From NCBI RefSeq assembly GCF_003334355.1, contig NZ_QOWP01000003.1: a stretch of 64,000 bases of DNA. One strand, 5' to 3'. The position numbers and the translations under genes were made by a program. The notes below the pieces were generated by a model that made no database searches, was not told the DNA's origin, and worked only from the letters and a program-made list of their open reading frames with translations. How positions within the stretch are numbered: the stretch's first letter is position 1; every line of letters starts with the position of its first letter. The DNA is from Escherichia coli. Its GTDB lineage: Bacteria; Pseudomonadota; Gammaproteobacteria; Enterobacterales; Enterobacteriaceae. Below are positions 12,127 to 18,405 of the stretch, in pieces.

Positions 12127-13542
12127 TTATTCGTCGTCGTACTGCGGCCCCGCATAGTTGTCGAAGCGCGACCATTGACCGTTAAAGGTCAGGCGTACCG
12201 TCCCGATTGGGCCGTTACGTTGTTTACCGATAATAATTTCCGCGATGCCTTTTAAATCACTGTTTTCGTGATACACCTCATCACGATAGATAAACATGAT
12301 CAAGTCCGCATCCTGCTCGATAGAGCCAGATTCACGCAGGTCGGAGTTGACCGGGCGTTTGTCGGCACGTTGTTCCAGAGAACGGTTCAACTGGGACAGC
12401 GCCACCACCGGCACGTTCAGTTCTTTCGCCAGTGCTTTCAGCGAGCGAGAGATTTCTGCAATTTCCAGCGTACGGTTATCGGAAAGCGCCGGTACGCGCA
12501 TCAGTTGCAGGTAGTCGATCATGATAAGCCCGATGCCGCCGTGTTCACGGGCAATACGGCGTGCGCGGGAACGCACTTCCGTTGGCGTCAGGCCGGAGGA
12601 GTCATCGATATAGATATTGCGTTTTTCGAGCAAAATACCCATGGTGCCGGAAATGCGCGCCCAGTCTTCATCATCGAGCTGCCCGGTACGGATTTTAGTC
12701 TGGTCAACGCGCGACAGCGACGCCAGAGAACGCATCATAATCTGTTCTGAAGGCATCTCCAGCGAGAAGATAAGTACTGGTTTATCCTGCAACATCGCCG
12801 CGTTTTCGACGAGGTTCATCGCAAATGTTGTTTTACCCATCGACGGACGCGCGGCGACGATGATCAAATCCGACGGCTGCAAGCCAGCGGTTTTTTTGTT
12901 GAGATCGTCATAACCGGTGTTTACTCCGGTAACGCCATCGTGTGGCTGCTGAAACAACTGCTCAATACGCGCCACGGTTGCGTCGAGCACATCGGCGATG
13001 TTCTTCGGCCCTTCGTCTTTGTTTGCACGACTTTCGGCAATTTTAAAGACGCGGGATTCAGCAAGGTCCAGCAGATCTTCGCTGGTACGCCCCTGCGGAT
13101 CAAAACCGGCTTCAGCAATCTCATTCGCAACCGAGATCATCTCACGGACAACGGCACGTTCACGCACGATGTCAGCATAAGCACTGATGTTCGCCGCACT
13201 TGGCGTATTTTTTGACAGCTCTGCCAGATAAGCAAAACCACCGACGCTATCGAGTTGCCCCTGGCGTTCCAGCGATTCCGCAAGAGTAATTAGATCGATA
13301 GGGCTACCGCTTTCCTGCAAACGCGCCATTTCAGTAAAGATATGACGGTGTGGGCGGGTGTAAAAATCGTCTGCTACCACACGCTCGGCTACATCATCCC
13401 AGCGTTCGTTATCTAGCATTAAACCGCCCAACACCGACTGCTCCGCTTCGATCGAGTGCGGAGGCACTTTCAGCCCGGCAACTTGTGGATCGCGTTCGCG
13501 GGGTTCAGCCTGCTGTTTGTTGAAGGGTTTATTTCCTGCCAT
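12127..13542 (-). CDS. dnaB: Replicative DNA helicase DnaB
   Basis: ORF track 471 aa MAGNKPFNKQQAEPRERDPQVAGLKVPPHSIEAEQSVLGGLMLDNERWDDV... Confidence 0.98.
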   Translation of the reverse strand: MAGNKPFNKQQAEPRERDPQVAGLKVPPHSIEAEQSVLGGLMLDNERWDDVAERVVADDFYTRPHRHIFTEMARLQESGSPIDLITLAESLERQGQLDSVGGFAYLAELSKNTPSAANISAYADIVRERAVVREMISVANEIAEAGFDPQGRTSEDLLDLAESRVFKIAESRANKDEGPKNIADVLDATVARIEQLFQQPHDGVTGVNTGYDDLNKKTAGLQPSDLIIVAARPSMGKTTFAMNLVENAAMLQDKPVLIFSLEMPSEQIMMRSLASLSRVDQTKIRTGQLDDEDWARISGTMGILLEKRNIYIDDSSGLTPTEVRSRARRIAREHGGIGLIMIDYLQLMRVPALSDNRTLEIAEISRSLKALAKELNVPVVALSQLNRSLEQRADKRPVNSDLRESGSIEQDADLIMFIYRDEVYHENSDLKGIAEIIIGKQRNGPIGTVRLTFNGQWSRFDNYAGPQYDDE

Positions 13543-13624
13543 AGTGAATGGAGTTACCGAGATAAAGAATGGGTCGAAACTTTACCATATGAAGCAGACC
13601 CTGACGATACGTTCTGGAGGACAC

Positions 13625-14608
13625 ATGGCAACACGAATTGAATTTCACAAGCACGGTGGCCCGGAAGTACTTCAAGCCGTAGAGTTCACTCCTGCCGATC
13701 CGGCGGAGAATGAAATCCAGGTCGAAAATAAAGCCATCGGCATCAATTTTATCGACACATATATCCGCAGCGGCCTTTACCCGCCGCCATCGCTACCCAG
13801 CGGATTAGGCACCGAAGCAGCAGGCATCGTGAGTAAAGTCGGCAGTGGTGTAAAGCATATTAAGGCAGGCGATCGTGTAGTCTATGCGCAGTCGGCGTTA
13901 GGCGCTTACAGCTCTGTGCATAACATTATTGCGGATAAAGCGGCGATTCTGCCTGCGGCAATTTCTTTTGAGCAAGCTGCGGCATCCTTCCTGAAAGGCT
14001 TAACGGTTTATTATCTGCTGCGCAAAACCTATGAAATTAAACCCGATGAGCAGTTCCTGTTCCACGCAGCAGCTGGCGGCGTTGGCTTGATTGCCTGCCA
14101 GTGGGCAAAAGCCCTGGGCGCGAAACTTATCGGCACCGTAGGAACCGCGCAAAAAGCGCAGAGCGCGCTAAAAGCGGGCGCGTGGCAGGTTATTAACTAT
14201 CGTGAAGAGAATCTGGTCGAGCGGTTAAAAGAGATCACCGGCGGTAAGAAAGTGCGCGTGGTGTACGATTCCGTGGGCAGAGACACCTGGGAACGGTCGC
14301 TGGATTGCCTGCAACGCCGCGGCTTAATGGTGAGTTTTGGCAACTCATCAGGTGCGGTTACCGGTGTGAACTTAGGCATTCTCAATCAGAAAGGCTCGTT
14401 GTATGTGACACGCCCTTCCCTGCAAGGCTATATCACCACGCGGGAGGAATTAACCGAGGCCAGTAATGAACTGTTCTCTTTGATTGCCAGCGGTGTGATT
14501 AAGGTCGATGTCGCCGAGCAGCAGAAATATCCGCTGAAGGATGCGCAGCGTGCGCATGAAATTCTGGAAAGCCGGGCAACGCAAGGTTCCAGCCTGTTGA
14601 TTCCATAA
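13625..14608 (+). CDS. qorA: NADPH:quinone oxidoreductase
   Basis: ORF track frame 13517..14608; start at internal MATRIEFHKHGGPEVLQAVEF (ATG 13625), 327 aa. Confidence 0.93.
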   Translation: MATRIEFHKHGGPEVLQAVEFTPADPAENEIQVENKAIGINFIDTYIRSGLYPPPSLPSGLGTEAAGIVSKVGSGVKHIKAGDRVVYAQSALGAYSSVHNIIADKAAILPAAISFEQAAASFLKGLTVYYLLRKTYEIKPDEQFLFHAAAGGVGLIACQWAKALGAKLIGTVGTAQKAQSALKAGAWQVINYREENLVERLKEITGGKKVRVVYDSVGRDTWERSLDCLQRRGLMVSFGNSSGAVTGVNLGILNQKGSLYVTRPSLQGYITTREELTEASNELFSLIASGVIKVDVAEQQKYPLKDAQRAHEILESRATQGSSLLIP

Positions 14609-14616
14609 AAGAAATA

Positions 14617-14646
14617 GGGCTTCCACCTGGGAAGCCCTTTCTTTTT
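14617..14646 (+). terminator. Rho-independent terminator after qorA (gggcttcc-acct-gggaagccc + T-run)
   Basis: Hairpin plus T-run read in sequence. Confidence 0.75.
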
Positions 14647-14773
14647 ATAGTTCGGCTGTATGTAGGGTACAGCACGATGAATCTGTTAGAGGCGCAATAG
14701 TGACAGATTTGATTATCAATTCCTATTTTGTTCTAAGGATAAAACCTTAGGTTGTGATCATCCGCACAATCCC

Positions 14774-15016
14774 TTAGTAACGCCAGCGGTCATAACGCTG
14801 ATATTTCGGCACTTTTGGTGCTTTAATCGCCTTAATAACCCACACCACCGCAATCGCCAGTAGTAACCACGGCAGCAACTTAATCATCAATGCCAGCATA
14901 CCGCCGAGGAACATAATGGCCGTCGCCACAACCAGCGCGGCGATAATGCCCAGCAACGAAACGCCGGTGACCATCAGCATGACAAAAAAGCCAATCACAA
15001 AAAGTAGTTCCAGCAT
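14774..15016 (-). CDS. pspG: Phage-shock protein G (small membrane protein)
   Basis: ORF track frame 14774..15226; start at internal MLELLFVIGFFVMLMVTGVSLLGIIAAL... (80 aa). Confidence 0.9.
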   Translation of the reverse strand: MLELLFVIGFFVMLMVTGVSLLGIIAALVVATAIMFLGGMLALMIKLLPWLLLAIAVVWVIKAIKAPKVPKYQRYDRWRY

Positions 15017-15044
15017 GATGCACTCCCAAATATGAAATCTCTTG

Positions 15045-15072
15045 CTGGCATTACAAGAATCATGCCAAAAAT
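15045..15072 (-). promoter_or_regulatory. Candidate sigma-54 promoter for pspG (minus-strand TGGCATG-N4-TTGTA)
   Basis: Reverse complement of 15051..15070 reads ttttggcatgattcttgtaa, matching the -24 GG / -12 (T)TG(C) pattern about 30 nt upstream of the pspG start. Confidence 0.5.
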
Positions 15073-15149
15073 AATCTATTGATTTAACAGCAAAACGCCC
15101 CGCGACGGTGCGCAGGGCGTGGTGAATTTGACTATTTTTTGGTGAAAAG

Positions 15150-16193
15150 TTAACGCTTATCCGCCACCAGTTTGAGCGCGTGTTCCAGCACATTAATGTC
15201 TGCACCCGCTTTATGGGCATTTTCACTTAAATAACGCCGCCACTGCCGCGCGCCAGGAATACCCTGGAACAAGCCCAACATATGCCGGGTAATATGACCG
15301 AGATACGTCCCCTGGCTGAGTTCACGCTCAATGTACGGATACATGGCGCGCACTACCGCCACCGGATCGGCATCGATATCCGAGGAACCAAAGATCTCCC
15401 GGTCTACCGCCGCCAGAATACCCGGATTCTGATACGCCTCGCGCCCGACCATCACGCCATCCATATGTTGCAGGTGTGCTTTGGCCTCTTCCAGCGACTT
15501 GATACCACCGTTAATCGACATTGTCAGATGCGGAAAGTCACGCTTCAGTTGATACACACGCGGATAATCGAGCGGCGGGATCTCACGGTTTTCTTTCGGA
15601 CTTAACCCCGAAAGCCAGGCTTTACGTGCATGGATGATGAACATCTCACACTCGCCTTTGCCGGAAACGGTGTTGATGAAATCGCAGAGAAATTCATAGC
15701 TGTCCTGGTCGTCGATGCCAATACGCGTTTTCACCGTCACCGGAATCGACACCACATCGCGCATCGCTTTCACGCAGTCGGCAACCAGCTGCGCATTACC
15801 CATCAGACACGCACCAAACATGCCGTTCTGCACCCGGTCAGACGGGCAGCCGACATTCAGGTTGATCTCATCATATCCACGCGCTTCTGCCAGCTTCGCA
15901 CACTGTGCCAGCGCCGCCGGATCGCTACCGCCGAGTTGCAACGCTACCGGATGTTCTTCTTCACTGTACGCCAGGTAATCACCTTTACCGTGAATAATCG
16001 CCCCTGTGGTCACCATTTCGGTATACAGCAACGTATTGCGGGAAAGCAGACGCAAGAAATAGCGGCAATGTCTGTCCGTCCAGTCGAGCATTGGTGCAAC
16101 GCTAAACCGACCACTCCAGTGAACGTCAGTTTTTTCAGGCATTGCGCTGGTTTGGTTGATTTTTTGCATTTCAGAATTACCGTGCATTTTCAA
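15150..16193 (-). CDS. dusA: tRNA-dihydrouridine synthase A
   Basis: ORF track 347 aa with conserved Dus motifs (...[12 protein letters not shown]...NLNVGCP...). Confidence 0.93.
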
Positions 16194-16480
16194 ATGTAGA
16201 GATTATTTTATCGATATATCATGGGGTTATGTTATTCAGCATCACTGTTCAGGAGGCTCAATAACGGGGTACTATACCATAACAACAGGAAGCGCCTGTC
16301 TCATTGCAAAAGAAAATTGAGATCCTCTCAAGGCATGAAGCTCTCACGAAGTGATGGAAATAATCTTATTAGCCGTTAGCTTTGTTAAGGCCAATGATAA
16401 ACAATCCAGGTTCGACGATAAATAAAAATCACACATTAAACTCCGGTGATATCTCTCCCTGCTAATAGCACTGATAGAGA

Positions 16481-16513
16481 AAAAAAGAACCCAATAAGCA
16501 TTGGGTTCTTTTA
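16481..16513. terminator. Bidirectional hairpin terminator downstream of yjbM (A7-gaacccaat-aagc-attgggttc-T4)
   Basis: Hairpin flanked by A-run and T-run read in sequence. Confidence 0.65.
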
Positions 16514-16549
16514 TGTAATGCCTTCCATACCATCGAAGAACTTCACATA

Positions 16550-17296
16550 TTATTTCTCCGATTTAACCCCGAATAAATCATAAATTAATTTAGAAGTGTC
16601 TGTATATATTTTAATCTTTTCCTTTGAGTTTGGGTCAAACGACTTAGCAAAGTCAATTAATTTCGGTGCAGCATCTCGCATTTTGCTTAAAATATCAGGG
16701 GCGAGCTTTCCTTCATTCACCAGATGTGACATCTTATCCAGATAGCCATCAAAATTCATTTCTCCCCCATCTGCCAGACGCTTCATCTCTCCCAGGTACT
16801 TCTTCATATCACGTTGAGATAACTCTTCAAACTGAGCTGTCAGATAGTTCTCATTATCATCATTAATATTCACTTTTTCTGCTCCTGCTAAATCTGTGTA
16901 GGCACTAGAGTATGAAAGTGAAATCAACAGCGAAGCGAATAATTTTAAGCTGTTGTCATCATATTCCTGACATGCATTAACAAACGTTAAAAAACCAGAA
17001 CCTATTGCTTGCAAATGTATATTCGCTAAAGGTTCATTATCTTTAGATTCCTCATAAAAAAGCTGAACCGTGGAGGGAAGGCCATTCTTGGTTTCTACAT
17101 CAAAAGTATATCGTTCTATGGGCGTTGCATCTTTATTATCCTCAGGATTACATATACTATTAATCGCAAAATGAAAAATAGCCCGATCAACAACTGATGC
17201 AATAAATTCACGATCGTTTAATTCCTCATCAGTGCAATCTCCAATATACTTATTAACCCACTCTTTGAGATTAGTTATTTGCTCAATTAAAAACAC
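16550..17296 (-). CDS. yjbM: Uncharacterised protein YjbM (AT-rich gene)
   Basis: ORF track 248 aa [31 protein letters not shown]...; no recognisable domain. Confidence 0.8.
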
Positions 17297-17571
17297 ATTT
17301 TTTTACGTGCATGCCATAAATTATGAGTGATTCTTTGAATAAACAAATCTATTTTTGCAATAATTATATCCCGATGACGCAGCGCTGAATAATCAATAGA
17401 CTTACCATATATATTATTTAATTTATCTTTGATTGTACCTCTATTATCTAATTTATCGTTGGTTGCATCTATAGTATCTAATTTATCTTTGGTTGCATCT
17501 TTATTATCGAATTGATTTGAATTGAGTGTTTTATTAAAGTATCCAGTTGCACCGGGTATTATCTTCAACAT
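17287..17571 (-). CDS. yjbL: Uncharacterised small protein YjbL with internal charged repeats; overlaps yjbM start by 10 nt
   Basis: ORF track 94 aa; DNA 17400..17520 contains an imperfect ~30-nt tandem repeat encoding D-x-T-K/N-DKLD units. Confidence 0.7.
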
Positions 17572-17889
17572 GATTCATCTACCTTTTTTGTCGTACCGTG
17601 TCCTCCTTATAAGTGTTTTGCCATCTGGTAACTATCAAAAATCGCTCATAATTTTCTGAACTACAGGTATGCGAACAACCCCAGTTAAATAAATAGCGAG
17701 TTAACTTGAAGCAATTTATTTAAAAATGAATTATTAATTATTATCGTGTTGATAATGGTACGACCAGGCAACACAACACCTTACGTACAAAACAGAAAAG
17801 CAACATTACGGCAACAATAAGGGTTCTCGGTGTTTTTCCTGGAACATGGTAAAGTAAGGACATTCTTAACCCCCACTTTGAGGTGCCCG

Positions 17890-18405
17890 ATGGAAAAGAC
17901 CACAACGCAGGAGTTATTAGCGCAGGCTGAAAAAATCTGCGCGCAGCGTAATGTGCGCCTGACCCCACAGCGCCTGGAAGTGTTGCGCCTGATGAGTCTG
18001 CAGGATGGCGCTATCAGCGCTTATGATCTGCTTGATTTGCTGCGCGAAGCTGAACCGCAAGCCAAGCCGCCAACGGTTTATCGCGCGCTGGATTTTCTGC
18101 TTGAGCAAGGTTTTGTGCATAAGGTGGAATCCACCAACAGTTATGTGCTCTGCCATCTGTTCGACCAGCCCACCCATACGTCAGCTATGTTTATTTGCGA
18201 TCGCTGCGGCGCGGTGAAAGAAGAATGTGCAGAAGGCGTGGAAGACATCATGCATACGCTGGCGGCAAAAATGGGGTTTGCCCTGCGGCATAATGTGATT
18301 GAAGCACATGGGCTCTGTGCGGCATGCGTGGAAGTGGAAGCGTGTCGTCATCCTGAACAGTGCCAGCATGATCACTCTGTGCAGGTGAAAAAGAAACCGC
18401 GTTAA
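17890..18405 (+). CDS. zur: Zinc uptake regulator Zur (Fur family)
   Basis: ORF track frame 17830..18405; start at internal MEKTTTQELLAQAEKICAQRNVRLTPQRLEVL... (171 aa). Confidence 0.95.
   Translation: MEKTTTQELLAQAEKICAQRNVRLTPQRLEVLRLMSLQDGAISAYDLLDLLREAEPQAKPPTVYRALDFLLEQGFVHKVESTNSYVLCHLFDQPTHTSAMFICDRCGAVKEECAEGVEDIMHTLAAKMGFALRHNVIEAHGLCAACVEVEACRHPEQCQHDHSVQVKKKPR

Follow-up and report, generated by a model that had tools for sequence, protein, structure and literature searches.

[quoted passage not shown] Papers citing that study relay that pspG transcription strictly requires rpoN and the hydrolysis of ATP by its activator and also, at second hand, that it depends on pspF and IHF. 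The promoter of pspG has been known since 2004, and its rediscovery yields nothing new. [quoted passage not shown]

The occupancy of this promoter by sigma-54 has been mapped in two species. Bonocora et al. used ChIP-seq in E. coli and identified a site, OS40, with a fold-above-threshold value of 15 that was assigned to pspG (b4050); its 17-mer is identical to the one described below (PMC4591121). For OS40, the predicted start is listed 25 nt away from pspG, and the site is flagged as experimentally confirmed in EcoCyc. In the same study, overexpression of sigma-54 raised pspG, one of only five responding genes with upstream intergenic sites, and the control of pspG was ascribed to PspF (PMC4591121). 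In Salmonella, the pspG site TGGCATGATTTTTGTAAG was enriched 39-fold in a sigma-54 ChIP-chip experiment, and a microarray with a promiscuous activator showed pspG up only 1.4-fold (PMC3844500). A gSELEX screen with reconstituted RpoN holoenzyme placed a peak between dusA and pspG (PMC8743547).

PspF binds the upstream activating sequences (UASs) of both pspA and pspG, with pspG described as having one UAS, and the two promoters differ in induction, ∼100-fold for pspA and ∼20-fold for pspG (PMC3709507). When PpspG was deleted, both the dynamics of PspF and the basal expression of pspA changed (PMC3709507). In vitro, an 88-nt probe of the E. coli pspG promoter formed sigma-54 open complexes with PspF(1-275) and supported abortive synthesis, and the −12 and −24 elements of pspA and pspG were reported to be identical (PMC4641871). 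The binding of sigma-54 in vivo and in vitro, the binding of PspF and the PspF-dependent open complexes are taken here from this literature.

The locus was analyzed within a stretch of 64,000 nucleotides of E. coli DNA, referred to as the window. An earlier note, made from the letters of the window, had proposed a sigma-54 type promoter for pspG on the minus strand at 15040-15075. The sequence, its geometry, its rank among window positions, its conservation and the presence of a UAS and an IHF core were established in the present analysis. The features around the site are as follows, in the order in which the minus strand is transcribed.

15150..16187, minus strand: dusA, encoding tRNA dihydrouridine synthase A; stop codon at 15152..15150; its terminator lies within the regulatory region of pspG
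15140..15146, minus strand (−105): candidate extra TTCACCA half-site, directly past the dusA stop and 20 bp ahead of the right UAS half
15119..15134, minus strand (−93..−78): PspF enhancer (UAS) TAGTCAAATTCACCAC, an imperfect palindrome of the TGGTSAAWTTSACCA type
15095..15120, minus strand (about −79..−54): dusA intrinsic terminator hairpin from a terminator scan, with a 10-bp stem, a 6-nt loop and then a TTTTG tail
15072..15084, minus strand (−43..−31): predicted IHF core AATCAATAGATTA, an exact match to WATCAANNNNTTR
15052..15068, minus strand: sigma-54 core promoter TTGGCATGATTCTTGTA, a 17-mer read from the sequence
15040..15042, minus strand: predicted +1, ∼15041 with ±1 nt, from the −24/−12 geometry; 25 nt before the pspG ATG
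15017..15039, minus strand: pspG 5′ leader, with the Shine-Dalgarno GGGAG at 15027..15023; the GGGAG block is conserved in the spacer alignment
14774..15016, minus strand: pspG coding sequence, 80 aa, envelope stress response protein PspG, from the list of open reading frames and the RefSeq and K-12 annotations; ATG at 15016

The regulatory region is densely packed. The spacer between dusA and pspG measures 133 bp (15017-15149), in agreement with the earlier placement of the element within 135 bp of the dusA stop, and it holds a half-site, the UAS, the dusA terminator, the IHF site, the −24/−12 promoter and a 25-nt leader. The identity of the downstream gene as pspG was confirmed by the profile match of the 80-aa open reading frame to the PspG equivalog TIGR02975 (phageshock_pspG), with 90.1 bits versus a cutoff of 53.7, and by the RefSeq annotation. 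Mapping to K-12 MG1655 assigned dusA to b4049, pspG to b4050, the small RNA pspH to b4758 and qorA to b4051. The dusA-pspG-qorA arrangement was found in 5,426 of 5,426 complete E. coli genomes, using an 801-bp query around the site at an identity of at least 95%, and the 115-bp regulatory stretch likewise matched all 5,426. Upstream of dusA, the window carries two open reading frames at 16550-17571 on the minus strand that correspond to K-12 yjbM (DUF2713) and yjbL, both of which are uncharacterised.

Compared with K-12, the element in the window is the same as pspGp of pspG/yjbO (b4050), with the identical 17-mer and the same 25 nt to the ATG. Between the stops of dusA and qorA (561 bp), the window departs from K-12 MG1655 at two positions only, both outside the functional cores. 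Position 15135, one base 5′ of the UAS, is A in the window and G in K-12, and position 15022, just past the Shine-Dalgarno, is T in the window and A in K-12. The window therefore carries a strain-level allele of pspGp only, with no functional difference.

The core promoter lies in a 20-mer, ttttggcatgattcttgtaa, which is read on the minus strand from 15070 to 15051 within 15040-15075. Its 3′ end is 34 nt before the pspG ATG, which fits the ‘about 30 nt’ that had been estimated for its distance from the pspG start. Promoters of the sigma-54 class carry GG at −24 and GC at −12 within TGGCAC-N5-TTGCW, at a fixed spacing of one turn. In the window, the −24 element is TGGCA, with GG at 15066/15065 (−25/−24), and the −12 element is TTGT, with G15054 and T15053 forming a GT at −13/−12. 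The offset from GG to the G(C/T) dinucleotide is the canonical 10 bp, and the spacing in TGGCATG-ATTC-TTGTA is exact for the class. The earlier reading of a −24 GG / −12 TG(C) element is thus correct for the spacing and for the GG at −24, but the −12 dinucleotide is off consensus, GT instead of GC, a deviation that is shared with pspA. A real sigma-54 promoter with an off-consensus −12 element had in this way been identified from the raw sequence alone. Transcription probably starts at ∼15041, as judged from this geometry, and the predicted +1 agrees with the distance of 25 listed for OS40 (PMC4591121) and with the mapping of K-12 coordinates.

A search with a bare sigma-54 consensus is weak evidence and not significant by itself. 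The 16-mer consensus TGGCACGNNNNTTGCW, allowing up to two mismatches, gave 9 matches in the window versus 14.9 expected, and a stricter degenerate sigma-54 pattern gave one match versus 0.43 expected. Since such plain counts are at the level of chance and could not judge the site, a leave-out matrix was used instead, built from the 41 other intergenic sites in sense orientation that Bonocora et al. published in 2015, with the pspG site left out (PMC4591121). With this matrix, the pspG site ranked first of 127,968 window positions, with 17.1 bits, above the training-set median of 15.7 bits and the runner-up in the window at 14.4 bits. Sites scoring as high are expected at about 0.33 per simulated 64-kb window, and the chance expectation would fall to roughly 3 × 10−4 once the correct strand and a location in the 133-bp spacer before pspG are required. 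The runner-up, CTGGCGCGTAAGCTGCA, is a sigma-54-like motif at 6380-6396 on the plus strand that lies within uvrA in sense orientation; when the main text of PMC4591121 was searched, neither this sequence nor ‘uvrA’ turned up.

For comparison, 80 pspG loci were collected from 80 species-level genomes, ranging from Escherichia to Yersinia, Rahnella, Biostraticola and Brenneria, which gave 79 distinct promoter regions. The promoter motif is near-invariant over these 79 orthologous regions and its flanks diverge. The −24 box TGGCAYG was found in 77 and the −12 box TTGTA in 74 of the 79 regions, each across more than 15 genera. The off-consensus GT at −12 is therefore itself conserved across species, and Huvet et al. 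reported that it is likewise conserved in pspA promoters (PMC3041696). The whole arrangement of UAS, IHF site and promoter is retained even in Yersinia, Rahnella and Brenneria. Use of the distant genera as independent genomic contexts was considered and rejected: dusA-pspG-qor synteny holds throughout, though the spacers have strongly diverged. Conservation, together with the published binding data, removed the doubt about the site.

The pspG promoter of Salmonella Typhimurium (STM4244) is an orthologous sigma-54-bound site in the same dusA-pspG synteny. Its sequence, TGGCATGATTTTTGTAAG, departs from that of the window at a single base, which lies between the −24 and −12 elements. In the sampled S. 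enterica arizonae and diarizonae, the leaders are longer and the motif lies 84-85 nt before the ATG. Leader length is variable in general, with predicted values of 25 nt in E. coli, ∼59 nt in Salmonella arizonae/diarizonae, 83-106 nt in Brenneria and ∼180 nt in Yersinia vastinensis. The UAS-IHF-promoter module is intact in all of these variable-leader loci (L014, L031, L076, L079 and L081).

A few orthologous promoters deviate from the common motif (among loci L025, L051, L060, L069, L078 and L031). Citrobacter werkmanii carries TGTCAT at −24. At −12, TTGAA was found in Entomohabitans, Trabulsiella guamensis and Biostraticola, TTGGA in one metagenome-assembled genome of the Enterobacteriaceae, and the consensus-like TTGCT in S. 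enterica subsp. diarizonae. These deviating promoters could be weakened or retuned.

Activators of the sigma-54 class bind UASs about 80-150 bp upstream, and the palindrome in the window lies at −93..−78. The search for PspF UAS palindromes suggested in the earlier note was thus productive: TAGTCAAATTCACCAC fits the palindrome TGGTSAAWTTSACCA better than any other site in the window, with one mismatch, and it matches the PspF enhancer at pspA. The UAS is strongly conserved across genera in the spacer alignment, and in Brenneria it is a perfect palindrome, TTAGTC-N5-GACTAA. A matrix of the 16-mer core was built from non-Escherichia pspG loci only and applied to the K-12 puuE-pspF-pspA locus. 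The two adjacent pspA UAS sites ranked first and second of ∼6,000 positions, at −126..−111 and −106..−91 relative to the start of pspA, and both also scored on the reverse strand. The site at −106..−91, TAGTGTAATTCGCTAA, is the known PspF enhancer, whose sequence has been given as TAGTGTAATTCGCTAACT (PMC4987338), and TAGTCAAATTCACCAC agrees with TAGTGTAATTCGCTAACT at 12 of 16 positions. A longer 24-mer matrix, which took in the arm of the terminator, was overfitted to the pspG orthologues, missed the pspA UAS and was discarded.

The pspG and pspA promoters share much of their design. In E. coli, pspAp carries the same TTGGCAYG-N4-TTGTA including the unusual GT at −12, PspF palindromic UASs of the same type, an IHF core between UAS and promoter, and right half-sites that are 20 bp apart, as at pspG. 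They differ in the number of complete UASs: pspA has two full palindromes at −126..−91, whereas pspG has one at −93..−78 and an upstream half-site only. The IHF core lies at −60 in pspA and at −43 in pspG, and the leader measures 41 nt in pspA and 25 nt in pspG. Paired half-sites at −105/−85 or −106/−86 were found in 52 of the 79 distinct promoter regions, about two thirds, and their 20-bp spacing is the same as that of the pspA UAS pair (−120/−100).

Downstream of the UAS, the predicted IHF core is one of 8 exact matches to WATCAANNNNTTR in the window, versus 2.9 expected. Its position is well conserved, with the core present at no or one mismatch in 69 of the 79 distinct promoter regions and starting at −43 or −44 in 72 of them. 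The conserved site and the activation by IHF that Lloyd et al. are said to have reported in 2004 suggest that IHF plays a role at the pspG promoter. Between the UAS and the IHF site lies the dusA terminator, a feature that sets pspG apart from pspA; its left arm adjoins the right half of the UAS. The terminator folds as RNA with −19.1 kcal/mol (z = −2.5) and shows compensatory double changes in 8 of its 10 pairs among 48 sequences. Because its sequence varies among genera and the pairing is kept, it is a real dusA terminator located inside the enhancer-promoter loop.

Taken together, the element is pspGp, the sigma-54 (RpoN)-dependent, PspF-activated promoter of monocistronic pspG, with a probability of roughly 97%. 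The proposal of a sigma-54 type promoter in this interval is borne out by the 17-mer at 15068..15052, its first rank with the leave-out matrix and its identity to ChIP-seq site OS40. The accompanying suggestion of PspF-dependent control of pspG also holds, given the attribution to PspF in PMC4591121 and the presence of the UAS palindrome. No substantive counter-evidence to this reading was encountered; the GT at −12 and the non-significant plain consensus search are noted.

In the mechanism, sigma-54 RNA polymerase binds the −24 TGGCA and −12 TTGT elements as a closed complex that is unable to open alone. The AAA+ enhancer-binding protein PspF occupies the palindromic UAS at −93..−78, and IHF at −43..−31 would bend the DNA such that the PspF hexamer contacts sigma-54. 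Hydrolysis of ATP by PspF then opens the promoter, with transcription expected to start ∼25 nt before the pspG ATG. In unstressed cells, PspA keeps PspF inactive. Stress at the inner membrane, such as mislocalised secretins or loss of the proton-motive force, frees PspF, and pspG is induced together with pspABCDE.

Other explanations of the motif were weighed against this reading. It could be a functionless, chance resemblance to the sigma-54 consensus, as the 16-mer count below expectation (9 versus 14.9) and the ∼0.33 equally scoring sites per 64 kb would allow. However, the site ranks first, in the correct orientation and within the 133-bp spacer before a psp gene, it is near-invariant in 79 orthologous regions with divergent flanks, and sigma-54 binds it in vivo in both E. 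coli (PMC4591121) and Salmonella (PMC3844500), which makes chance a negligible prospect. Another alternative is a real but silent or poised sigma-54 site, as many intragenic sigma-54 sites are, with pspG mRNA arising mainly from dusA read-through or from a sigma-70 promoter. Bonocora et al. stress that many sigma-54 binding sites are transcriptionally inactive (PMC4591121), and dusA points the same way as pspG from just 133 bp away. Against read-through stands the strong, covariation-supported dusA terminator between dusA and the promoter, and a search for a sigma-70-like promoter on the pspG strand found none. In addition, the silent-site explanation conflicts with the response of pspG as one of only five such genes to sigma-54 overexpression (PMC4591121), with the activity of the promoter in vitro with PspF (PMC4641871) and with its ∼20-fold induction (PMC3709507), and it is considered very unlikely.

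A further alternative concerns the activator rather than the promoter. NtrC, alone or beside PspF, could activate pspG and tie it to nitrogen status, and an NtrC gSELEX target with 58% peak intensity has indeed been reported in the dusA/pspG spacer (PMC8743547). The PspF half-site CACCA also resembles the NtrC half-site GCACCA, and this likeness might explain cross-binding of NtrC in vitro. The conserved element matches the PspF enhancer instead, and pspG is assigned solely to PspF in the literature (PMC4591121, PMC3041696). A search for NtrC-type palindromes gave, in the spacer, only a match with three mismatches on the terminator stem, and 25 matches in the window versus 31 expected. Control by NtrC is thus held to be extremely improbable, and PspF is retained as the activator of pspGp.

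The 3′ end of the pspG transcript leads to a second regulatory feature, a small RNA located downstream of the coding sequence.

14607..14717, minus strand: PspH small RNA, mapped from K-12 b4758; it overlaps the pspG 3′ UTR

PspH ends at the bidirectional pspG/qorA terminator, whose stem lies at 14638..14616, and it is more conserved than its surroundings, with long runs at least 95% identical among 74 distinct sequences. PspH is an Hfq-dependent RNA; Melamed et al. showed that it sponges Spot 42 and stated that it may have its own promoter (PMC5145812). An Rfam scan of 12000-18000 gave nothing above noise and no match for PspH; the scan placed two matches on the pspG/qorA terminator, at 20-21 bits versus a gathering score of 50. 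On the minus strand, a terminator scan found no intrinsic terminator from the pspG stop to PspH, and the sole candidate with a strong stem up to qorA is the pspG/qorA terminator itself. Because no terminator separates pspG and PspH, transcripts initiated by sigma-54 and PspF must carry PspH. Of all that was observed at this locus, the link to PspH is the only thread of some research value. It is conceivable, though less likely than not, that the pspG enhancer is bipartite, consisting of TTCACCA and the UAS, and that envelope stress reaches the carbon metabolism controlled by Spot 42 through processing of the pspG mRNA 3′ end to PspH.
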